Positions 2,595 to 54,791 of a stretch of 64,000 nucleotides of DNA are shown in pieces (position 1 is the stretch's first letter; the number at the start of each line of letters is the position of its first letter). The notes beneath the pieces were generated by a model, which saw only the letters and a program-made list of their open reading frames with translations, did not search any database and had not been told where the DNA came from. Source of the DNA: Candidatus Altimarinota bacterium (GTDB lineage: Bacteria; Patescibacteriota; Gracilibacteria; CAIRYL01; GCA-016699755); assembly GCA_963664295.1 (NCBI GenBank), contig OY760935.1, positions 480,001 to 544,000 on the forward strand, read 5' to 3'. The translations under genes and the position numbers were made by a program.

Positions 2595-2635
2595 ATTTAA
2601 AAAATATTCATGCTTTGCATGAATCTTTTTTAAAT
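2595..2635 (-). terminator. Hairpin directly 3' of the tRNA-Pro CCA
   Basis: atttaaaaaatattcatgc-ttt-gcatgaatcttttttaaat, 19-bp arms with 1 mismatch. Confidence 0.6.
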
Positions 2636-2711
2636 GGTCGGGGCAGCAGGACTCGAACCTGCGACCTCACGGTCCCAAACCGCGCACTCTAGCCAACTGA
2701 GCTATGCCCCG
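2635..2711 (-). tRNA. tRNA-Pro(TGG)
   Basis: CGGGGCATAGCTCAGTTGGCTAGAGTGCGCGGTTTGGGACCGTGAGGTCGCAGGTTCGAGTCCTGCTGCCCCGACCA; full cloverleaf, loop TT-TGG-GA, encoded CCA. Confidence 0.97.
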
Positions 2712-2717
2712 ATGATG

Positions 2718-2966
2718 TTAAAAATCTTTACTGTCCTCCAAAATCTTTTTTAAAAACTCTCTGCCTTTACCTGATTTTAAAAACTTTTCTCTTTTCATTG
2801 CCTCTCCTCTGCTACTTACCTCCTCACAATATACCAATTTCCAAGGGCCTTTCCCAGTTGTCCAACGATTACTACCATTATTGTGAATATCAATGCGTCG
2901 ATCAATATCTTTTGTAATACCTTTATAAAGAATTCCTGCCTGATTTTTAATAACGTAAACGAACAT
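2718..2966 (-). CDS. Small GIY-YIG nuclease (SLX1-like/UPF0213 type), copy 1
   Basis: FVYVI...LYKGIT.D..RR...HN.G....T..KGPWKLVY.E......A..REKFLKSGKGR pattern. Confidence 0.9.
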   Translation of the reverse strand: MFVYVIKNQAGILYKGITKDIDRRIDIHNNGSNRWTTGKGPWKLVYCEEVSSRGEAMKREKFLKSGKGREFLKKILEDSKDF

Positions 2967-2974
2967 AAAAAGTA

Positions 2975-3032
2975 AACCTGCGACCTCATCCGCCTAAGGC
3001 GGACGCACTCTAGCCAACTGAGCTATGCCCCG
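2975..3032 (-). pseudogene. 5' tRNA-Pro fragment with palindrome-substituted anticodon arm
   Basis: Identical to the tRNA from its 5' end to GCAGGTT, except 13 nt of the anticodon arm are replaced by TCCGCCTTAGGCGGA (2989-3003); lacks the 3' T-stem and acceptor strand. Confidence 0.9.
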
Positions 3033-3038
3033 ATGATG

Positions 3039-3287
3039 TTAAAAATCTTTACTGTCCTCCAAAATCTTTTTTAAAAACTCTCTGCCTTTACCTGATTTTA
3101 AAAACTTTTCTCTTTTCATTGCCTCTCCTCTGCTACTTACCTCCTCACAATATACCAATTTCCAAGGGCCTTTCCCAGTTGTCCAACGATTACTACCATT
3201 ATTGTGAATATCAATGCGTCGATCAATATCTTTTGTAATACCTTTATAAAGAATTCCTGCCTGATTTTTAATAACGTAAACGAACAT
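3039..3287 (-). CDS. Small GIY-YIG nuclease, copy 2 (identical to copy 1)
   Basis: Same 82-aa translation as 2718-2966. Confidence 0.9.
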   Translation of the reverse strand: MFVYVIKNQAGILYKGITKDIDRRIDIHNNGSNRWTTGKGPWKLVYCEEVSSRGEAMKREKFLKSGKGREFLKKILEDSKDF

Positions 3288-3295
3288 AAAAAGTA

Positions 3296-3353
3296 AACCT
3301 GCGACCTCATCCGCCTAAGGCGGACGCACTCTAGCCAACTGAGCTATGCCCCG
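3296..3353 (-). pseudogene. 5' tRNA-Pro fragment with palindrome, copy 2
   Basis: Identical to 2975-3032; palindrome at 3310-3324. Confidence 0.9.
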
Positions 3354-3376
3354 ATGATGTTAAAAATCTTTACAAG

Positions 3377-3426
3377 CTCATCCACCACCTAAGGCGGACG
3401 CATTTTACCCAACCAAGCTATGCCCG
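3377..3426 (-). pseudogene. Degenerate third tRNA-Pro fragment
   Basis: ctcatccaccacctaaggcggacgcattttacccaaccaagctatgcccg aligns to the other fragments with several substitutions and indels. Confidence 0.75.
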
Positions 3427-3698: not shown

Positions 3699-4844
3699 AT
3701 GCCTGTTTTAACAAAAAAGACCCTTGGTCTTTTCGAGAGGTGGCTGGATTTTTTACTAACTGCGAATAATAATTCTGCGAATAAAGTGGTTTTAATAGAC
3801 TTTTTCTTAAAAGAATTTACCAAAAACACTAAAGAGTTTTATCGTTTTTTGTTTTATCTGGAAAATATTTTAACAAGCAAAAAACAGAGTCACATTGCGA
3901 CTAGAGATAATCTGGCAACAAAGCATATTAATATTATTTCTCCGCTTAGTGATCGTTTTAATTTTTATGAAGAAAAATGTAAGTTGGACGATATCTGTTT
4001 TAAAATTTTAGAACCTAAAAAATACAAAAAACTTTCCAGAGAGGTTTTGAGGTATAAAAAAAACTCAAAAAAAATAATTAAACAAGGTTCAAATATTTTA
4101 AACAATCTTTTGTTGAATAAAAATTATGAATTTATTCTTAGAGGTCGTTATAAAAACATTTATAGCATCTATCAAAAACTACAAAAAAAGCAAAAAAAGA
4201 AAATAAATAGTCTTAGTGATGTTTTTGCTTTTAGGATTATTCTTAAAAACAATAATCCTCAGGCTTGTTATCAAATACTCAGCCTTCTGCATGATAATTT
4301 TAATGTTTTGTCTAAAAAATTTAAGGACTACATCAATATTCCTAAAATTAATGGCTATCAAAGTATTCACACTAGCTTAAAAGACCTAATACCTAACCTT
4401 GATTTACTTATTGAAGTTCAAATCAGAAGTCAAAAAATGCATGATTTTGCTGAAAAAGGTTTGGCTGCACATTGGCTTTATAAACACCAAATAAGCCACT
4501 TTGAATTTCAAAATAAATTTTTTCCTGCCCATAGAGCTGAGGACATGGTTTACTTTTTTTCTTTTGAGGGTGATCTTTTTAAAATGGAAAAAGGTGTTAA
4601 AATTATAGACTTTGCTTATAATATACATACAAGCATAGGCAACAAGGCAAAATCTGCAATTGTAAATGGTAATATTAAAAATATTGATTATGAAATTAAA
4701 GAGGGAGATAAGGTAAAAATTCTTAAATCTAGTTTTGATAGGGTAAAAATTAAGTGGCTGGAATACACAAGTAATAAAAACACTCGCAAAAAAATAATTT
4801 ATGCTACAAAAAAATATGGAAACAACCTACAAGCAACTAATTAA
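3699..4844 (+). CDS. RelA/SpoT-family (p)ppGpp synthetase + TGS, lacking an intact HD hydrolase and C-terminal ZFD/ACT
   Basis: GRYKNIYSIYQK, DVFAFRII, KDYINIPKINGYQSIHT, EVQIRSQKMHDFAEKGLAAHWLYK; TGS IDFAYNIHTSIGNKAKSAIVNG. Confidence 0.88.
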   Translation: MPVLTKKTLGLFERWLDFLLTANNNSANKVVLIDFFLKEFTKNTKEFYRFLFYLENILTSKKQSHIATRDNLATKHINIISPLSDRFNFYEEKCKLDDICFKILEPKKYKKLSREVLRYKKNSKKIIKQGSNILNNLLLNKNYEFILRGRYKNIYSIYQKLQKKQKKKINSLSDVFAFRIILKNNNPQACYQILSLLHDNFNVLSKKFKDYINIPKINGYQSIHTSLKDLIPNLDLLIEVQIRSQKMHDFAEKGLAAHWLYKHQISHFEFQNKFFPAHRAEDMVYFFSFEGDLFKMEKGVKIIDFAYNIHTSIGNKAKSAIVNGNIKNIDYEIKEGDKVKILKSSFDRVKIKWLEYTSNKNTRKKIIYATKKYGNNLQATN

Positions 4845-6375
4845 AAATATGGGTGAAGCTGCCTGGCTTGGTAATATAAATGGAAAAACTACCTTTGCCA
4901 ATACTGCATTTTATAAATTGCTTGATATCAAAAAAGAGACTTTAAATAAAAAAAATATTTTTGATTTCTTAGAATTAAAAAATAAAGGGGTAAAATCTTG
5001 TCATGAGGCTGTTTTATTAAGAAAAAACAAACAAAAAATTCCTATTTATTTACACAATATTAAATTAGATGATGATTGGTGTATAAAAATAGCTACTGAT
5101 TTACGAAAAATAAAAAAACAAGAGTCTGTTTACAAAAAATTGATTGAAAATATGCATGAGGGCGTGTGGATGGGTGATGAAAAAAACAGAACTATTTACG
5201 CCAATCCCCGCTTCTGCTCTATGCTTGATTATTCTTTTGAAGAAATGGCTGGTAAAGACTTTTTTTCTTTTTGGGACAAAAAAAGCATTGAAAAAATTAA
5301 AAAATTAAATAAAACCAAACACAAAAAAGGCTTAAGCACTGCATGCGAAGGAATTTTGCTTTCCAAAAAAAGAGAAATGCCAGTATTTTTAAGCGCCACT
5401 CCTCTGTGTAGCGGTGGTTTTATTGGTATTATTACTGATTTAAGTGAGCTAAAAAAGAAAGAAAAAAGCGAAAAAATGCTCTCAAAAGCAATTAAATATT
5501 CAACTGATGCAATTATTGTCTTCAATGACAAAAGAAAAGTTCTTATTTGGAATAAGGGTGCAAAAACAATGCTTGGTTATAAAGAATCAGAAATAATCAA
5601 CAAAGATATAAAAACAATAATCCCCTTACAAAAGCTAAGATTAATGTTGAAAAATTGCGAAGGTCTACAGAATCTGGAAATCGAAGTAAAGCATAAAAAT
5701 GGAAACAAAATTAAAATTGCTACTACTTTTACTCCTATTTTTAACAAAAAAAACGAAAATCATGACAATGAAGATAATTATTTAATTATTGCCAGAGATA
5801 TTACTACTCAAAGAAGCCTTGAAGAAGAACTCGATATTAAACATCAAAAAATAAAAGAGGTCTATGGCGATCTTGGCAATATTAAGCGCCAAACTGACTA
5901 TATGTTTGAGCTTATTGATCTTTGTAATGAAAATCATGACAAAAAAACAATAGCTGATTTCATTGTGAGTTCTATTGCCATGTTAACCAAAATTGATGCT
6001 TGCGTTTTTAGAATTCATGAGCCTGGAAAAGGTACTCTTGAATTACTTTCTTCTTTTGGAGTTGGTGCTGATTGGGCTGGTAAATCTACCATTAAACTAA
6101 AAAACAGCCTTTTAGAAAGAGCTTACAAAAAAAACTTTCCTTTAAAAATTATTGATATTGGCAAAGAACTTCAGTATCAATCAAAACATTTGGCAAAAAA
6201 AAATAATTTATATTCTTTACTTTTAGTTCCTATTCAGTTTCAGGGTCAATTAATTGGCAGTTTGTCGCTTTATGCAAGTCCGGAGAAAAAAATTAGTATC
6301 TTTGAAAATGATTTTATTGAAAAATACAGCAAGCTCATCAATATGATTGTCTATCACATGGTTTATTTGAGCTAA
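4816..6375 (+). CDS. PAS-PAS-PAS + coiled coil + GAF sensor with no recognisable output domain (start 4801 or 4816)
   Basis: Three PAS S-boxes (LIKNMGEA..FANTAF; LIENMHEG..YANPRFCSMLDY; STDAII..WNKGAKTMLGY..ARDIT); GAF end SLLLVPIQFQGQLIGSLSLY; no H-box, GGDEF or HATPase. Confidence 0.85.
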   Translation: METTYKQLIKNMGEAAWLGNINGKTTFANTAFYKLLDIKKETLNKKNIFDFLELKNKGVKSCHEAVLLRKNKQKIPIYLHNIKLDDDWCIKIATDLRKIKKQESVYKKLIENMHEGVWMGDEKNRTIYANPRFCSMLDYSFEEMAGKDFFSFWDKKSIEKIKKLNKTKHKKGLSTACEGILLSKKREMPVFLSATPLCSGGFIGIITDLSELKKKEKSEKMLSKAIKYSTDAIIVFNDKRKVLIWNKGAKTMLGYKESEIINKDIKTIIPLQKLRLMLKNCEGLQNLEIEVKHKNGNKIKIATTFTPIFNKKNENHDNEDNYLIIARDITTQRSLEEELDIKHQKIKEVYGDLGNIKRQTDYMFELIDLCNENHDKKTIADFIVSSIAMLTKIDACVFRIHEPGKGTLELLSSFGVGADWAGKSTIKLKNSLLERAYKKNFPLKIIDIGKELQYQSKHLAKKNNLYSLLLVPIQFQGQLIGSLSLYASPEKKISIFENDFIEKYSKLINMIVYHMVYLS

Positions 6376-8609: not shown

Positions 8610-8654
8610 CATTTGAAAAACAATACTGACTTTCATGGTATTGTTTTTTAAATG
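8610..8654 (-). terminator. Hairpin 3' of the duplicated tRNA-Arg 3' end
   Basis: catttgaaaaacaatac...gtattgttttttaaatg, 17-bp arms with 1 mismatch. Confidence 0.55.
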
Positions 8655-8761
8655 GCGTCCCCGACAGGATGCTCATCCGCCTAATCGGCGGATAAGGCCT
8701 TCTGCGCTCGCTCGGAATTTTGCGCAAGCACAAATTCACTCGCTCGCTTGAGTGTCGAACC
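8653..8761 (-). repeat. Duplicated tRNA-Arg 3' end interrupted in the T-loop by an 84-nt palindromic insert
   Basis: tggcgtccccgacaggat (8653-8670) = 8826-8843; tcgaacc resumes at 8755; insert 8671-8754 contains atccgcc-taatc-ggcggat. Confidence 0.8.
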
Positions 8762-8825
8762 AGGTTCTCGGTCCTGTGGAAACATAAAAAACAACCTGAT
8801 GACTGCGTCATCAGAACATTTTTTA

Positions 8826-8902
8826 TGGCGTCCCCGACAGGATTCGAACCTGTGACCTCTGGCTCCGCAAGCCAACGCTCTATCCAGCTAAGCTACGGGG
8901 AC
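8826..8902 (-). tRNA. tRNA-Arg(GCG)
   Basis: GTCCCCGTAGCTTAGCTGGATAGAGCGTTGGCTTGCGGAGCCAGAGGTCACAGGTTCGAATCCTGTCGGGGACGCCA; loop TT-GCG-GA. Confidence 0.95.
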
Positions 8903-27736: not shown

Positions 27737-28275
27737 AACTTCAACCACTCTCGCACTTTAAACTCTGCCATTGGAAAAATTTCAGTCTCCAAGTCTCTTA
27801 ATTCAAGGTCTGTAAAACGAGATAAAACAAAGTCAGAAGTGTCTATTGGCGAACCTTTTTCTCTTCTCTCTACGCCAATCTTTAAACGAGCAAAATTTTC
27901 TGTCTTCAAAATATTCATAATACTCAAAATCCCCTTATGACCACCTGACCCGCCACCATCACGAAAACGCAAAGAAGAAAAAGCGAGATCCTTGTCATCA
28001 TGCACAATTAAAAGATTATTATCAGTAATTTTATAAAAACTCTTCACAGCACGCACGCTCTCTCCGGACAAATTCATATAAGTTTGTGGCTTGAGAAAAA
28101 TAATTTTTTGACCTTCTTTTATTCCCTTAGATATTTTTCCTTTAAATTTCACTTCTTTTTTAAAAGCAGTGAAGTCCCATTTTGCCTGAAGATGGTCAGC
28201 CAATAAAAAACCGGCGTTATGACGCGTCTTTTTATATTTTTCGCCGGGATTTCCTAAAAAAACTATTAATTTCAT
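27733..28275 (-). CDS. pth: Peptidyl-tRNA hydrolase
   Basis: LGNPGEKYKKTRHNAGF, KPQTYMNLSG, VHDD, GGSGGHKG, RLKIGV. Confidence 0.97.
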   Translation of the reverse strand: MKLIVFLGNPGEKYKKTRHNAGFLLADHLQAKWDFTAFKKEVKFKGKISKGIKEGQKIIFLKPQTYMNLSGESVRAVKSFYKITDNNLLIVHDDKDLAFSSLRFRDGGGSGGHKGILSIMNILKTENFARLKIGVERREKGSPIDTSDFVLSRFTDLELRDLETEIFPMAEFKVREWLKF

Positions 28276-28520
28276 TTCTTTTTAAATCGCTTTATTTTTA
28301 AATTAGGACTTTTAACGAGCCAGCAAAAACCCAATATTATAAAGAGTCTTTTTATATTTTTCGCCGGGATTTCCTAAAAAAACTATTAATTTCATTTCTT
28401 TTTTAAATCGCTTTATTTTTAAATTAGGACTTTTAACAAGCCAGCAAAAACCCAATATTATAAAGAGTCTTTTTATATTTTTCGCCGGGATTTCCTAAAA
28501 AAACTATTAATTTCATTTCT

Positions 28521-28522
<2 letters not shown>
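28226..28522. repeat. 120/121-bp tandem repeat duplicating the pth 5' end
   Basis: gtctttttatatttttcgccgggatttcctaaaaaaactattaatttcatttctt at 28226, 28346 and 28467. Confidence 0.93.
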
Positions 28523-34123: not shown

Positions 34124-34960
34124 ATGACAAATGACAATCAACAAAATCCTACACAAGGAGATCAAAATGTAAATCCTCAGGCTGGTAGTGGAACACCTGC
34201 TTCTGCAAACACAGGTGGAACACAGGCTAGTGATCCACAAGCAAGTGCTCAACAACAAATGCCACCTCAAGGACAAGATAATCAACAATTTCCACAAGGT
34301 CAACAAATGCCTCCGCAGGGTATGCCACAACAAGGAGGTCAAATGCCTCCGCAGGGTCAATGGGGCTATCCTCCTCAAGGTCAAATGCCTCCGCAGGGTA
34401 TGCCACAGCAAGGACAATGGGGTCAAATGCCTCCGCAGGGTCAATGGGGCTATCCTCCTCAAGGTCAAATGCCTCCGCAGGGTATGCCACAGCAAGGACA
34501 ATGGGGCCAAATGCCTCCGCAGGGTATGCCACAGCAACCGCAAACTCCTGTTGAAAGAATAGGATCTTTTGGTCGAGATAATGCTTTTCAAACAAGTATT
34601 AAACTTCCTAAACACAACCTAAGTTTCGATGAAAATAATTTTCTCAGATTGCTTGCAGGTTCAATCTCTCTTACAAAAGATGAAAAAAGAAGAGTTATTG
34701 AGGCTGTTCCTCGTTTAACACAAGCCCAAGTTGATGAACTAATTAAAATTCTTGACGAAGAAAAGAAAAAATTCTCTGAACTTGATGTAAAACATAAAGA
34801 TCAATTAAGAATGCTTGAAAATCAGCATAAAGTTGAATGGGAAGCACTAGAAGCAGAGCTAATGAGCGAAGAAACTGCTGTAGAAGAAAAAAGTCAAGCA
34901 GAAGAAATTCGCAAAAGCCTTGGCGTAAAAGATGAAGGTGAAAAAAAAGAAGAAAAATAG
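34124..34960 (+). CDS. Protein with Gln/Pro/Gly-rich repeat N-terminus and helical C-terminal domain
   Basis: 28-aa (84-bp) repeat at 34337 and 34421, partial at 34505; C-terminus FLRLLAGSISLTKDEKRRVIEAVPRL. Confidence 0.85.
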   Translation: MTNDNQQNPTQGDQNVNPQAGSGTPASANTGGTQASDPQASAQQQMPPQGQDNQQFPQGQQMPPQGMPQQGGQMPPQGQWGYPPQGQMPPQGMPQQGQWGQMPPQGQWGYPPQGQMPPQGMPQQGQWGQMPPQGMPQQPQTPVERIGSFGRDNAFQTSIKLPKHNLSFDENNFLRLLAGSISLTKDEKRRVIEAVPRLTQAQVDELIKILDEEKKKFSELDVKHKDQLRMLENQHKVEWEALEAELMSEETAVEEKSQAEEIRKSLGVKDEGEKKEEK

Positions 34961-38067: not shown

Positions 38068-38508
38068 TGTCATTGCGGACTACGACCCATTTTTCGCCCT
38101 TACCGGGCTTCAAGGGGCAAGTCCGCAATCTCCGCTCAAGACCTGTCTTAAGTGTTCCCCTGCTGTCATTCTGAGCGGAGCGAAGAATCTCCTTGTCCAT
38201 TGGCTCAAGTCCTGTCTTGGGCAATTCAACAGTAATGACAACGGGAGATCCTGAATCGAGTTCAGGATGACAGAAAAAAGAGACAGGAGGTGGTCATTGC
38301 GGACTTGATCCGCAATCTCCTTATCCATGTGCTCAAGTCCTGTCTTAGGTGGTTCAACAGTAAAGATCCTTCGCTTCGCTATGCTCACTCAGGATGAAAA
38401 ATAAAGGAGCTCACTCAAGATGACAAAAAAAGAGGGTGATAAAAAAAGGGCAGAACGACAAAATACAAATTACTTCGTCGTCCGCCTTTGGCGAACTTCT
38501 AATGATAA
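38068..38508. repeat. Cluster of REP-like palindromic repeats (GTCAT...ATCTC type)
   Basis: gtcattgcggact..agtccgcaatctc; gtcattctgagcggagcgaagaatctc; gagatcctgaatcgagttcaggatgac; gtcattgcggacttgatccgcaatctc; three gctcaagWcctgtctt units. Confidence 0.85.
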
Positions 38509-49361: not shown

Positions 49362-52300
49362 TTACAGCTTCCCTCTAAGTTTTTTCATCAAATCTTCACA
49401 TGCAAGGTGTTGAGATATTGTGTCGTTATCTTTTCCTTTTTGTTTAAGTTCCTCATATTTTGCAAAATGAGGGTCATCTTTCATTTGTTCTGGATTTTTA
49501 ATTTTTTGTGAATATTCTGTGTATTTATCATACAAAGGTCTTAAGTAAGTATCATCTCTCCAATAGTCTTTATTTCCTGCGTATGCTTTTGACCATACAA
49601 ATTGATAGGCTGTGATGAAATCTATTTCTGAAGATATTTCATATTTCTGCCTAAATGATTCATATAAATCACGATAGATTTCAAAGTTGTCTCTATTTTG
49701 TGGCATTTGGAATGCACGCATTAAATCTACGATACTGGCGTATAAAGTTGCTTCTTTTCCTTTTGTTTTATCTGGTTCTTCTTTGTTTAATTCATATTCA
49801 TCATGATCTCTTATGTTTCCTTCTTTAAAGTCCCTTTTCCATTGATCAACATCATAGTTTGCATATAAATAATCTCCTACTTCTTTCATTGCCATTAAGA
49901 CCAAAGCTCTATCAGAAGCACGCATAAATCTAGCATTAAAACTTAAATCTAAATTTAACACTGGCATCATTTGACCATTAATTTCCATGAAATCATTTTG
50001 ATTACCATAAAAATCTGTTCTTATTCTAAGTAAATCTTGATTTCTATCATCATTTTCGTGATGCCAACCTTGAACATTATATCTATTCGCACTCTCATCA
50101 ACACCCAGATTTACAAATGGAAAAAATACTTCTCTTGTTCTATCAACCACATTCAAAATATCTAAAGGTCTGTGCCCCGGTTGCTCATTAGAATTGGGCA
50201 AAGTAGGGTCACATGTTTCCTCTGATCTAAAACGAGAAATAATCAAGTTATGTGCATTATCTCGACTATCTGGTATGCCATCGCCATCGCTATCAATAAC
50301 ATCTAATATTTTTGGATCATTAGGAAGCACATAGTTACTTGAAGTTATGCCTCTGGTTTTTTTAGGCAATGTCCATCTGCCATTTTTCTTGATAAAAGGA
50401 CTTGGTCTTTTTCTCATTTCTTCAGCAATTTGATCCCAGTTTTGATCTCGCAAAACACCATCAAGAATAACTTCAAAAACATTCTGACCTTCAACAATAT
50501 TGCTTATATCTTTTGTTCCTATGTATTGAGCATAAGGAAACACTCTTTTAATATGTGGCGCATAACTCTTAAAGCTCCAACAAGCTTGACCAACAAATAT
50601 TTTTGATTGATCTGATTCTTTAATAGCATATTTTTTATAAGCACTTTGAATCGCACTAGAAAGTTGATTTCTACCTCCTGCGTGTCCAACATATTGAACA
50701 TAATCCACATTTGGGTCATTCATTTTTTCAAAAACCTTTTCATTGTTACTACCAAATGTTTTAGGAATGTGTACTTCTATGGGTATATTCTTGCCATCTT
50801 TATCTGTTTTTGCTCCATGCATGATGTACACCATTTCTTCTTTTCTGTCTTCTCTTTTCCAGCCATATTCAGGACGCTCAAATAAATCTGCCTCCCAAGA
50901 CCTAAAAAACTCTTCCTGTCCAAAATAAATATAAGAAACAAATTTTCCATCAGCCAAAATCTCTTTTCGTGGTGGAGCATCAGGTAATAAGTTCTGAGAT
51001 TGTTTTAATTTTTCTATTCTTTCTGCATATTTCCGATATTTAAAACTCCCTCGTCTTAAGCCAATGCTTAAATTTGTTGTCAAAAATCTAGCAATTTTAT
51101 TTTTATCAGACTCTGCATAGGTTAAAATCTTATCAAATTGCTCAGGTGTGCCTTTTTTAAGAAAAAGGAAGCCAATTGCAGAATAAATTTTATTCAAAGC
51201 TTCTATGTCTGTAATTGGAAGCTCTTTTCCTTCAAACAAAATATCTTCAAAAAGCTTGCTGATATCAGCAATGCTAGAGCTATTCGGAAAGTTATCAACA
51301 AAGCGCATTAAAAGCCTAAAAGACATCATTGTTTTTTTTGTTTTATCTATATTTACATCTTTTTCAACATTAAGATTATTAATGTTCCAAAAAATAAATT
51401 CTGCGCTAAAATTTTCTACAAGAGGAATAAAATCAATTTTTTCCACTTTAAGCAAACCTAAAAACAAATGTTGTTTTTCAGCCTGAGTGAACTGATTTGT
51501 TTTTTCTAAAAAACTTACACAAGATTTTTTAGAAAAGTTTTTAACAACATTTAATCCATCACAAAAAGCTTCTATTATCAAAAGATTATTGTTTTCATTG
51601 TTTTTAATTAAAAACTCTGACACATCTTCGCCGTTTATAAATGCAACTAATGCATTAAAATAATTTTCATTATTTATTTTTTCTGGCTTAAAAAACTGAT
51701 AAAATCCTTCAGTCCTAAGCTTAAGGTTAATTTTATTTAATTGAACAATTTTTTTAGCATACTCACCATTCACGCCCTCCTCAAGTGGTAATTCATCAAT
51801 AAATGATGCACGTTCAAAACTGCAAATATTTAAATTAGTAAAAAAGATTATTAAGGCATCAACATAATCTTTGTTAACACCTTTTTCTAAAACAAAATTA
51901 CTAATAAATCCGTCATCAAGTTTTATGCCTGCCAAACCCAACCTAATTAAAGATTTAACATAATCTTCATTAACTGCTTTTTCAATACTAAACACTCTCA
52001 CAAAAGAACCATCAACGTCAAAACCTGCTTGGGCAAGCTTTATTAATATTTTTACATAATCCTTGTTTTCTGCCTTTTCTATACTAAGGCTGTCAACAAA
52101 AAATCCATCAACATCAAAACCTGCTTGGGCAAGCTTTATTAATTTATCGATATAATTTTTGTTTTCTGCTTTTTCAAAACTAAAGCTGTAAACAAAAGAA
52201 CCATCAACATCAAAACCTGCTTGGGCAAGCTTTATTAATATTTTTACATAATCCTTGTTTTCTGCCTTTTCTATTGAAAAATATTTCAATAAATACTCTC

Positions 52301-54791
52301 TAATTCTAGAACCTGTTTTATAAAGACTGATTAATGCATCAATATATTCTACGGTAGTGGCTTTTTTAATTGTAAGATTTAGCACTAATTCATGTTTAAT
52401 TTCTATATCTCCCTGATGAAGCTTAATTAATGCATTAACATAATCTGTGTTCGTAAATTTTTCTCTCGGAAAATCTTTCAAGCAGTAATAAAGCTCTATT
52501 CCCGCTTGATCAAGTTTAATAAAATTATTAACACAAACCGAATCAAGAGTGTTTTCCGGACAATATTCAAGAACACCGTAAAAATTTATACCAACACTAC
52601 TTAAGACGATTAAAGCATTAACATAATTCTCATCACTTGCCTTCTCTAGGGTTAAACATTCAATTAAAGAATCTGTTATTTTAATGCCAAATTTTTGAAG
52701 CTTAATTAAAACATCAACATAATATTTATTTTTTAGTTTTTCTGGAGTCAAAACTTTTATTAAATCACTTTCTTCGCGCAAAGAACAAAACTTCACAATA
52801 TTATCCATATAAACTTTATCTCCTACTTCTGCAGATTCCAGCAATTTAACTAAATTTACATCAAAACTTGCTCCTAGTTTTTGTAAAATAAATAATCGCT
52901 CAACACAAGCCTTGTCTTTTATTCTTGCAAAAGTCAAATAGGAAAGTAGGCTAGAAGTTATTGTTAAACCTAATTTGCATAAAGCAAATAATTCTTGAAC
53001 ATAAATTTTGTCTTTAGCTTTTTCCAAAGTAAAATTTTCTATAAATTTACCATCAATTTCTATGCCTGCTTGATGAAGCTTAACTAAGGTGTCAATATAA
53101 TTTTTATCTTTGGATTTTTGAACAGAAAGACTAAAGCTAATTATTCCTATTTTATTATATAATTCAACTACTACATCAACATAAGCCTGATTCATTTTTT
53201 CAGACCCAAGACTTTGTATCAAATATTCATCATAACATCTTACGCCTATTTTCCGCAAATCATCAAAAATTTCAATATTATCTTTAACAAGGCTAGCACT
53301 ATTTTTACACCAAAAATAATCATTAAACAAATTATTATCAACCTTAAATCCTGCCTGATGAAGCTCTATAAAAAAATCCAACTTGTTAATGGTAAATTCA
53401 TTAAAATTACGACACAAAGGTTCAACTTCTATGCCTGCTTGATGCATTTTAAGTATAGCGTTTATATATTGTTCTTGTTTAAATTCTTCAACCGAAAAAC
53501 CATCAATCAACCTACTATCAACTTTTATGCCTGCTTGATGAAGCATGATTAAGGTTTTAATATAATTTTCATCTTTGCCTTTATCTGTATATAACTCTTT
53601 AACTAATTCGCCATTAATTTCTATGCCTGCTTTATGCAGAGCTATTAAATTTTTGAGATAAATTTCATCCTTTACCCTTCTTGAGTCCAATGCTTTTATT
53701 AAGCTTCTATTAATTTTTATGCCTTCTTTTTGTAAGCTCATCAAAACATCAACATAACCTTCCTCTTTAAATTTCCTAGGATAAAAATATGCAATTAGCT
53801 CACTATCAATCTCTTCTGACTGCCTCATTTTAATCATTGCATTGACATATCCTGCTTTTGTAGCTTGTTGTATAAAAAAATTTTTAACTAATTTGCCATC
53901 AACTTTTATACCTGCTTGATGAAACTTGATTAAAGCATCAATATAATCTTGATTTTGAGATCTTGCCAAATCAAAATGCCACAAAAAACTTCCATCAATA
54001 TCTATCTCTGCTTTGTGCAATTTTATTAAAGCATCAATATATTCTTTGTCCCAACTCTTTAAACTGTCTAAGGAAAAATTATCTATGTCTACAGCCTGTT
54101 TGAAGGTGATTAAAGTGTTAACATTGTCTTCATTTTTCAACATTCTTACAACATTGTTTCGAAAAAAATTGGAATCAATAACTATACCTAATTTCTGAAG
54201 TTTTACTAATGTGTCTATAAAGTGTTCATTATTTAGTTCAACACCGCTCAGTGCTCCAATAAAAAAGAAATCTATCTTTGCTCCCAATTCATGAAACATT
54301 ATCAAAGTATCAACATATTTTTCATGGTTTACTTTAATACAAGACAAAAATCTAATTGTTTCACTATCAATCCTTATACCTGCTTCACTTAATTTTATTA
54401 AAGCTTCAGAATATTTTTTATTATATACTTTTTCTAAGGTAAATCTTTTAACAAATTCACTGTCAACTATCACGCCTGCCTGATGAAAACTTAATAATAA
54501 ATCTGCATCCAAGTGTCCCTTGATTTGATTTAAGTAAGCATTTAATAAATCAGGATTACTATCTAATATAACAAATAATGCATCTTCAAGATTATACACT
54601 GGAGCAATATTTTCAATTCTTGTGTACTGCTTAAAATCATTAATATCCTTTTTAATGTCAATTATTTTTTGAACAAGCTCTTTTTGTAGTTTTTCAATAT
54701 CAATATCTGACTTTTCTAAATCTTCTCTAAGTCCTTGAATATCAATTTTAACTGCCTCAAATTTCTGAGAAAAAGACTCATTATTGCTCAT
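49362..54791 (-). CDS. 1809-aa protein: ~32-aa helical repeats plus C-terminal putative clan CD (caspase/gingipain-like) peptidase region
   Basis: Repeat YxxxLIKLHQAGIxIDxxF; YVGHAG...GQACWS; DSDGDGIPDSRD Ca-binding-like motif. Confidence 0.75.
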   Translation of the reverse strand: MSNNESFSQKFEAVKIDIQGLREDLEKSDIDIEKLQKELVQKIIDIKKDINDFKQYTRIENIAPVYNLEDALFVILDSNPDLLNAYLNQIKGHLDADLLLSFHQAGVIVDSEFVKRFTLEKVYNKKYSEALIKLSEAGIRIDSETIRFLSCIKVNHEKYVDTLIMFHELGAKIDFFFIGALSGVELNNEHFIDTLVKLQKLGIVIDSNFFRNNVVRMLKNEDNVNTLITFKQAVDIDNFSLDSLKSWDKEYIDALIKLHKAEIDIDGSFLWHFDLARSQNQDYIDALIKFHQAGIKVDGKLVKNFFIQQATKAGYVNAMIKMRQSEEIDSELIAYFYPRKFKEEGYVDVLMSLQKEGIKINRSLIKALDSRRVKDEIYLKNLIALHKAGIEINGELVKELYTDKGKDENYIKTLIMLHQAGIKVDSRLIDGFSVEEFKQEQYINAILKMHQAGIEVEPLCRNFNEFTINKLDFFIELHQAGFKVDNNLFNDYFWCKNSASLVKDNIEIFDDLRKIGVRCYDEYLIQSLGSEKMNQAYVDVVVELYNKIGIISFSLSVQKSKDKNYIDTLVKLHQAGIEIDGKFIENFTLEKAKDKIYVQELFALCKLGLTITSSLLSYLTFARIKDKACVERLFILQKLGASFDVNLVKLLESAEVGDKVYMDNIVKFCSLREESDLIKVLTPEKLKNKYYVDVLIKLQKFGIKITDSLIECLTLEKASDENYVNALIVLSSVGINFYGVLEYCPENTLDSVCVNNFIKLDQAGIELYYCLKDFPREKFTNTDYVNALIKLHQGDIEIKHELVLNLTIKKATTVEYIDALISLYKTGSRIREYLLKYFSIEKAENKDYVKILIKLAQAGFDVDGSFVYSFSFEKAENKNYIDKLIKLAQAGFDVDGFFVDSLSIEKAENKDYVKILIKLAQAGFDVDGSFVRVFSIEKAVNEDYVKSLIRLGLAGIKLDDGFISNFVLEKGVNKDYVDALIIFFTNLNICSFERASFIDELPLEEGVNGEYAKKIVQLNKINLKLRTEGFYQFFKPEKINNENYFNALVAFINGEDVSEFLIKNNENNNLLIIEAFCDGLNVVKNFSKKSCVSFLEKTNQFTQAEKQHLFLGLLKVEKIDFIPLVENFSAEFIFWNINNLNVEKDVNIDKTKKTMMSFRLLMRFVDNFPNSSSIADISKLFEDILFEGKELPITDIEALNKIYSAIGFLFLKKGTPEQFDKILTYAESDKNKIARFLTTNLSIGLRRGSFKYRKYAERIEKLKQSQNLLPDAPPRKEILADGKFVSYIYFGQEEFFRSWEADLFERPEYGWKREDRKEEMVYIMHGAKTDKDGKNIPIEVHIPKTFGSNNEKVFEKMNDPNVDYVQYVGHAGGRNQLSSAIQSAYKKYAIKESDQSKIFVGQACWSFKSYAPHIKRVFPYAQYIGTKDISNIVEGQNVFEVILDGVLRDQNWDQIAEEMRKRPSPFIKKNGRWTLPKKTRGITSSNYVLPNDPKILDVIDSDGDGIPDSRDNAHNLIISRFRSEETCDPTLPNSNEQPGHRPLDILNVVDRTREVFFPFVNLGVDESANRYNVQGWHHENDDRNQDLLRIRTDFYGNQNDFMEINGQMMPVLNLDLSFNARFMRASDRALVLMAMKEVGDYLYANYDVDQWKRDFKEGNIRDHDEYELNKEEPDKTKGKEATLYASIVDLMRAFQMPQNRDNFEIYRDLYESFRQKYEISSEIDFITAYQFVWSKAYAGNKDYWRDDTYLRPLYDKYTEYSQKIKNPEQMKDDPHFAKYEELKQKGKDNDTISQHLACEDLMKKLRGKL

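Follow-up and report, generated by a model that had tools for sequence, protein, structure and literature searches.

Short DNA hairpins replace native DNA hairpins in duplicated pieces of tRNA genes, and at the locus described here the altered pieces lie beside a very small nuclease gene of the GIY-YIG type. The replacement follows a rule: the piece that is removed has, with few exceptions, complementary ends, and nothing of the target is duplicated. The locus belongs to a stretch of 64,000 nucleotides, here called the window (G000:C1:480001-544000), from a complete genome of 1.215 Mb with 33.5% GC. The reading we favour, at a probability of roughly one half, is that a family of Ssn-like nucleases acting on single-stranded DNA (ssDNA) swaps its cognate hairpin into DNA hairpins that were already present. 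Judged from sequence comparison, the hairpin is likely the recognition signal and, at the same time, the mobile cargo of tRNA-lodged GIY-YIG nucleases of about 80 amino acids. Support for a link to the nuclease is partial. The analysis newly contributes numbers for the target rule, counts that refute an anticodon specificity and a measure of the strength and the limits of the nuclease link.

The intact tRNA-Pro(TGG) gene occupies positions 2635..2711 of the minus strand and is, according to ARAGORN, the sole Pro(TGG) gene of the genome. The program called 37 tRNAs there; isoacceptors such as Pro(GGG) were uncalled, and with a single Pro gene called the intact tRNA-Pro is likely essential. Upstream of it and co-oriented with it are two identical units of 321 bp (2712..3032 and 3033..3353, both minus strand), each composed of a 5' tRNA-Pro fragment, a GIY-YIG gene and a spacer; the first is seen at about twofold read depth. 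The gene copies, at 2718..2966 and 3039..3287 of the minus strand, are identical and encode a single-domain protein of 82 amino acids (PF01541, E 2.6e-16). The fragments span 2975..3032 and 3296..3353 (minus strand), end in the T-arm 8 nt 5' of the nuclease ATG and carry the signature hairpin TCCGCC-TAA-GGCGGA at 2989..3003 and 3310-3324, respectively. Past the nuclease stop codon, the intact, unswapped tRNA-Pro begins after 6 nt. An older unit has decayed (3354..3426, minus strand): its nuclease gene is absent, and a mutated 5' tRNA fragment (3374-3426) with a mutated hairpin (3381-3398) is fused directly to the final 20 nt of the 321-bp unit. Read along the minus strand, the order is decayed fragment, fragment, GIY-YIG gene, fragment, GIY-YIG gene, intact tRNA-Pro(TGG) and, downstream of the latter, a terminator-like hairpin (2606..2624) recognized by consensus match only. 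An Rfam scan found two tRNAs and no other family, and a promoter scan stayed at chance level (7 versus 5.6 expected).

The surroundings have peculiarities of their own. The trailer of tRNA-Pro includes an inverted, that is antisense, copy of the gene's own variable/T-arm region (2536-2583), and in this genome tRNA-Met(CAT) and tRNA-Val(TAC) have antisense tRNA pieces in their trailers as well. A fold-back of the pre-tRNA on such a copy could take place. A short RelA/SpoT plus TGS gene followed by a PAS-PAS-GAF protein, in which no output domain was detected, fills 3699-6375. Other repeats of the window are three non-coding-looking units of about 121 bp (28198-28522), a coding repeat rich in Gln, Pro and Gly (34304-34540) and a long array of coding repeats of about 96 bp (51900-54420).

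What was exchanged can be read off directly. In each fresh fragment a native 13-nt hairpin, which persists in the intact gene at 2670..2682 (minus strand) as a perfect 4-bp Watson-Crick DNA hairpin with C...G ends, has given way to TCCGCCTTAGGCGGA. The preliminary description had reported that 13 nt turn into a 15-nt palindrome while the flanks stay unchanged, and this is borne out: nt 1-29 of tRNA-Pro are followed by the palindrome and by 14 nt that are again identical to the tRNA. It was also right to doubt point decay: the swap is not of that kind. Its statement that the anticodon arm is replaced applies to the inner part of the arm, whereas the two outer pairs are retained. The palindrome at 2989-3003 has 7-bp arms and a 1-nt centre; folded as DNA it forms 6 bp with a 3-nt loop, at -5.9 kcal/mol. 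The pattern CCGCC-N3-6-GGCGG has 3 matches in the window, compared with 0.00 in 100 shuffles. A hairpin of the same family, with a 5-nt loop (8676..8692), sits in the 3' repeat of tRNA-Arg(GCG), where no GIY-YIG gene is nearby.

The swapped fragment is real. Logan contigs of one sample (runs X1 and X3) contain a unitig over 2702-3033 with 0 differences; the depth of the unit is 19.8 versus 10 and 10.3 in the flanks in the one run, and 37.2 versus 11.6 and 20.5 in the other. Run X4, from another study, has a unitig over 2702-3023 with 2 SNPs and a depth of 4.8 versus 3 and 2.9. With hairpin-spanning contigs from two studies and the unit at about twice the depth of its surroundings, an assembly artefact was rejected.

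Homologous loci from 41 related genomes plus GTDB (74 loci) allowed the exchange to be described in general terms; matches were obtained in 100 of 103 loci. A sense tRNA lies within 300 nt in 71 of the 100 homologous loci and in 32 of the 49 loci of a later set. We counted as clean events those with a perfect insert stem of at least 5 bp, an insert no longer than 30 nt and flanks that match the tRNA exactly, a filter that left out imperfect inserts, double-hairpin inserts and the Pro loci of genomes G010 and G032. The first set yielded 41 clean events at 37 loci, the window locus included, and 38 of them remove at least 4 native bases. For both sets together the figure is 49 of 52, and target-site duplication is absent.

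The ends of the removed piece are complementary in 47 of these 49 replacements, while controls give about 36%. Among the 38 of the first set 37 comply (31 C..G, 5 A..T, 1 G..C); random segments of the same length from the same tRNAs, drawn 10,000 times, reached a mean of 13.7 and a maximum of 24. The 49 later loci contributed 10 out of 11 replacements, against a control mean of 4.1 and a maximum of 10. Both exceptions (L013 and L130) look like mis-parses via flank mutation and were nevertheless counted as failures. Collapsing the first set to 29 distinct classes of tRNA and position leaves complementary ends in 28. A stem of at least 2 bp is found in 29 of the first-set removed pieces, versus 4.0 in the control.

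The context is equally regular. Targets mostly read R^C...G^H: the base on the 5' side is a purine in 41 of 43 cases, the background being 0.54, and the base on the 3' side is other than G in all 43 (background for non-G, 0.70). The insert has T...A ends in 46 of the 52 events. Sites found in relatives by the motif itself have the same context (5' purine 32/38, 3' pyrimidine 34/38); it is weaker at metagenome sites, with a 5' purine in 51 of 80 among the matches listed. As to which strand forms the hairpin, the mismatches show no uniform lean: the first inner mismatch is C-A in 12 cases, G-T in 5 and another in 10, and for the outer pair G-T (16) is set against A-C (7). Flanks lengthen the stem by at least 3 bp in 11 of the 80 metagenome matches listed, where 1.8 are expected, an excess that is not seen in relatives (1 of 38 sites).

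Where the tRNA is hit varies. Of the 41 first-set events 30 lie in the anticodon region, 6 in the variable or T region and 5 in the D-arm, and many of the removed pieces pair up in a register foreign to the tRNA fold. Several swaps may be found within one fragment (L036, L039, L044), and at many loci the swapped copy is downstream of the nuclease gene. A second mode, the pure insertion of longer or double hairpins, is seen among the homologous loci and stands outside the event counts. The idea of an anticodon-specific knock-out was rejected: the anticodon is lost in just 15 of 52 events, and D- and T-arms are struck as well. Nor can we uphold the view that the hairpin preserves a tRNA-like fold while it abolishes decoding, since the fragment lacks the 3' strand of the acceptor stem, ends in the T-arm and has no cloverleaf fold. 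The few anticodon losses, the odd registers and the missing cloverleaf together argue that the target is a DNA mini-hairpin and not the decoding function.

The swap at tRNA-Pro(TGG) appears to have recurred. Among relatives, the three closest proteins (in G000, G010 and G032; 57-63% identity to the query) all reside at tRNA-Pro(TGG) with the same swap, and there the flanks agree with the tRNA allele of the respective genome up to the very edge of the hairpin. In G179 the hairpin is the same, the piece removed is longer and the boundaries are others. Flanks from the own allele and the boundaries in G179 point to separate swap events at this tRNA, as far as alignments can tell; fresh flanks could also be attained by gene conversion from the tRNA. 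A tally of local alleles gives 3241 versus 26 and is partly circular, because events are detected by their match to the local tRNA.

The protein itself is a regular member of the GIY-YIG superfamily. Its PF01541 match scores 60.1 bits, with a cut-off of 22.6, and the family-invariant residues Y4, Y14, G16, H28, E48 and E60 as well as the near-invariant R24 are all present; Y4, Y14, G16, R24, H28 and E60 presumably have the catalytic role of the conserved GIY-YIG residues. By sequence, the nearest solved structures are those of UPF0213 proteins (PDB 1zg2, E 2e-8; 1ywl, E 2e-4). No NCBIfam family was matched by the 82-aa protein, and the ESM Atlas returned generic GIY-YIG clusters only. Viral contigs contained no family member by one 8-residue pattern, a search of such low sensitivity that absence is not implied.

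The genome has another short GIY-YIG gene (L003, G000:C1:622611-622832), which is placed between inverted SRM-like repeats and is probably a member of the Ssn group; a repeat near it bears a one-mismatch copy of the signature hairpin. The 82-aa protein is 35% identical to it and separates from the REP/SRM-flanked group in a FastTree protein tree, from which 8 of 100 proteins were dropped for being short, gapped or stop-containing. SRM flanks, i.e., hairpins tagged HGTCWY..., are absent at the window nuclease and present at L003; this result comes from sequence inspection, as the SRM regular expression matched no locus, not even those visibly flanked by SRM. Another family member (L131, G005:C8) lies beside a gene with a partial duplication that looks like one for RNase P RNA. 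Judging from this case, structured RNA genes other than those of tRNAs may also serve the cassette.

The preliminary description had further proposed that the hairpin is the cis signal of the GIY-YIG element. A tie to the GIY-YIG family does exist, and both the protein tree and the comparison of genomes attest to it; the hairpin is not, however, a local companion of the gene. On a tree of 42 proteins the hairpin type changes 7 times, versus 15.7 in 1000 shuffles (minimum 11); on the same tree tRNA identity changes 22 times. This tree contains clean-event loci only, and 20 of its 39 inner branches are without resolution. Where one genome has several GIY-YIG loci, their hairpin families can differ, for example among the loci at Asn and Phe tRNAs in G005, Asn and Met in G006, Met, Phe and Lys in G007, Pro and Gly in G010 and G032, Met and Pro in G034 and Phe and Ser in G035. 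Conversely, sister nucleases of different phyla have one hairpin family (L089 with L090; L092 with L095). Counted by genome, 59 of the 67 that have a strong family member contain TCCGCC-N2-4-GGCGGA (median 4), as do 27 of the 44 that have a weak match (median 1) and 12 of the 39 that have none (median 0). Hairpin count and nuclease presence correlate with a rho of 0.55 over 150 genomes of the phylum, and a control with the reversed pattern is near zero. Kin share labels, so that the statistics of tree and genomes overstate independence. Single genomes deviate: G049 and G051 have 5 and 4 hairpins and no family member was found in them, and G132 has 25 hairpins with a single weaker member, at tRNA-Lys.

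Most hairpins are found far from any such gene. The metagenome contains at least 122 sites of the 15-mer; among the 80 matches listed, a tRNA is within 500 nt in 6 and a GIY-YIG gene in 2. In the relatives 7 of 75 sites among the matches listed are within 600 nt of a GIY-YIG match, according to a comparison of tables by hand. About 90% or more of the hairpins, among the matches listed, are thus away from GIY-YIG genes. Inspection of 38 sites in relatives revealed 14 within 500 nt of a tRNA and 0 near GIY-YIG, the latter figure being biased low by the choice of sites, since the set consisted of 18 loci plus 20 hand-picked ones and omitted two known nuclease-adjacent sites. In the genome of the window 3 of 8 exact hairpin sites lie within 700 nt of a tRNA, versus 4.25% of the genome. 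The motif is common: 735 copies of one version occur in 99 of 151 genomes of the phylum. Loop sequences are biased by genome (0.226 versus 0.044 after shuffling), which fits copying from a donor within the genome by any enzyme.

The hairpin also resides in other repeats. Two copies of an abundant REP-like repeat of the genome hold it where sister copies hold a 5-nt piece, and the hairpin in the 3' repeat of tRNA-Arg (8676-8692) fills a slot that has other hairpins in paralogous repeats. The body of this tRNA-Arg(GCG) 3' repeat (8653-8830) is common to repeats of Ser, Gln and Gly tRNAs, and one slot of such repeats contains, across copies, three different hairpins with T...A ends. Partial tRNA repeats are widespread: about 20 of the 37 tRNA genes of the genome have them, either 5' upstream or 3' downstream, mostly nuclease-free; the units measure about 80-275 bp, occur in up to at least 4 copies, and several share an internal module across tRNAs. 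There are also about 70 matches to TGTC-tagged REP/SRM-like repeats, often paired, one of them at 38164 of the window, and a one-mismatch signature hairpin is seen at 38481-38495.

How might the exchange work? Like its relative SsnA, the nuclease would bind hairpins in ssDNA, be it at transcribed tRNA genes, at replication forks or in incoming DNA. It would nick at the base of the hairpin stem, and the resulting gap would be filled, by host repair or ligation, with a copy of the cognate hairpin. In essential tRNA genes such swaps would be lethal, so they would survive in spare copies. Through recombination via the 29-nt segment that equals the tRNA, a nick beside the hairpin might further cause tandem units of 321 bp to be gained and lost; the decayed unit, which has no nuclease gene, fits such a process. 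The weak point of this hairpin-swap reading is the pasting step. To our knowledge, GIY-YIG enzymes are hydrolases and not strand-transfer enzymes, which counts against this step. A bolder version, which we offer tentatively and hold to be somewhat doubtful, has the protein of about 80 amino acids serve a minimal mobile system as its only dedicated enzyme: a native ssDNA hairpin would go out, a clade-specific hairpin of 14-17 nt would come in by the R^C...G^H rule, and neither target duplication nor a transposase nor a reverse transcriptase would be involved. Such a system might have seeded thousands of palindromes across phyla, and a sister reaction might be the missing source of CGTC-type REPs.

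Other explanations have to be weighed. The hairpin might be a non-autonomous mini-element that host repair, or an enzyme other than the nuclease, carries into tolerant hairpins; it would meet the GIY-YIG cassette only in spare DNA linked to tRNAs and be co-inherited from then on. We consider this possible, yet rather unlikely. It would account for the many copies remote from GIY-YIG genes, for the hairpins in REP-like repeats and in the nuclease-free tRNA-Arg repeat, for the partial repeats without nuclease at about half of the tRNAs of the genome, for loops biased by genome as expected of copying within it, and for the few genomes that have hairpins and no family member. It does not sit well with a hairpin type that varies from one GIY-YIG locus to the next inside a genome and agrees with the nuclease clade in different phyla, nor with the medians of 4 hairpins with and 0 without a strong member. 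The obvious candidates for a local mobiliser were sought as well: neither an HUH Y1 transposase (PF01797, 0 matches) nor a reverse transcriptase (PF00078) was found in this genome, which speaks against a mini-element moved by either. Less probable still is a homing-type immunity mark. The nuclease would then cut native hairpins of tRNA genes, much as SegB attacks T-arm sequences of tRNAs, and would thereby further its insertion and amplification; the cassette would carry the swapped hairpin as the resistant allele. SegB is indeed a tRNA-linked GIY-YIG homing enzyme and drives tandem amplification (PMC2330249, PMC13096335), and the swap common to the three closest proteins among relatives, all at tRNA-Pro(TGG), would suit such a mark. 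The intact, unswapped tRNA only 6 nt from the stop codon, however, stays a target; swaps affect different arms and may be several per fragment; and the copies in REP-like repeats, like the one sequence that is found across phyla, are left unexplained.

That the fragment acts as an RNA, either mimicking a tRNA or serving as a leader for control of nuclease expression, and was selected to lose decoding, strikes us as quite improbable. Flanks that are 100% identical to the tRNA, their end 8 nt before the ATG and the common orientation with the tRNA would agree with such a role, but acceptor stem, CCA and cloverleaf are all absent, the anticodon is spared in most events, the swapped copy is downstream of the gene at many loci, and the older copy has decayed. 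A local accident, finally, is hardly credible. Perfect tandem repeats are prone to misassembly and inverted repeats are perfected by template switching, so that an assembly error or a quasi-palindrome made perfect had to be envisaged; yet contigs of two studies contain the hairpin at about twofold depth, and template switching copies local sequence, whereas the same stem is found at unrelated tRNAs in several phyla.

The short GC-rich palindromes that abound in the phylum receive a testable origin here, and pairs of enzyme and hairpin, with a precise target rule, are now at hand for a very small nuclease. If the preferred hairpin-swap reading is correct and the protein drives the exchange, a new DNA editing reaction would emerge, a structure-guided replacement of hairpins. 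This would bear on the origin of REP-like repeats that lack a transposase and would extend the Ssn toolkit of ssDNA-specific enzymes. A practical aspect concerns annotation: programs may mistake swapped fragments for odd tRNA genes, as ARAGORN does with some of them (L085, L129).

Several known systems resemble parts of this picture. The GIY-YIG gene adjoins tRNA genes, has no isotype preference and is amplified in tandem, as is SegB, a phage-borne, free-standing homing endonuclease of T-even tRNA clusters that makes double-strand cuts at a 27-bp site; hairpin replacement, in contrast, is not reported for SegB in the available text of the two papers (PMC2330249, PMC13096335). Mitochondrial GC clusters and double-hairpin elements are likewise tiny GC-rich mobile palindromes without coding capacity. 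One of them, GC42, inserts with a putative target-site duplication, and mobility by intron endonucleases has been proposed (PMC4478555); here, unlike there, the native hairpin is removed and nothing is duplicated. A classical MITE or insertion element differs for the same reason. An integrase att-site scar does not fit either, as the unit holds the 82-aa GIY-YIG ORF only and its tRNA duplicate is swapped internally. With UPF0213 proteins the nuclease has the single GIY-YIG domain in common. A description of mini GIY-YIG cassettes lodged in tRNAs, or of hairpin replacement, was not found in the literature searched, which was largely that outside subscription journals, without supplements.

The closest parallels are those in which an enzyme is paired with a palindrome. 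CGTC REPs are reportedly without a dedicated transposase, and REP families with alternative self-complementary inner loops have been described (Di Nocera et al. 2013, PMC3733652). Like REP/RAYT pairs and TnpA(REP) REPtrons, the present system ties short palindromes dispersed over the genome to a small enzyme gene. It differs in the lack of a GTAG/CGTC tag, in the unit of 14-17 nt and in the absence of a Y1 transposase from the genome, and also in what its hairpin replaces, namely an inner hairpin within tRNA copies or within REPs. SsnA of Neisseria meningitidis, a single-domain GIY-YIG protein of 94 amino acids, binds the ssDNA hairpin that is cognate to it and cleaves next to that hairpin (Chenal et al. 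2025, PMC11893778). Its homologs (CDD cd10448) pair with NTS/SRM repeats of their own, for which an IS-like or REPtron-like origin was proposed; in the main text of that article "tRNA" has 0 occurrences. The window gene is flanked by tRNA duplicates with a replacing hairpin, unlike the TGTC/CGTC-tagged repeats of Ssn as described there. Otherwise it shares with Ssn the small single-domain GIY-YIG protein, the hairpin-forming flanks and a hairpin type paired with the homolog. Hairpin and nuclease appear to work most like the Ssn/SRM and REP/RAYT pairs.
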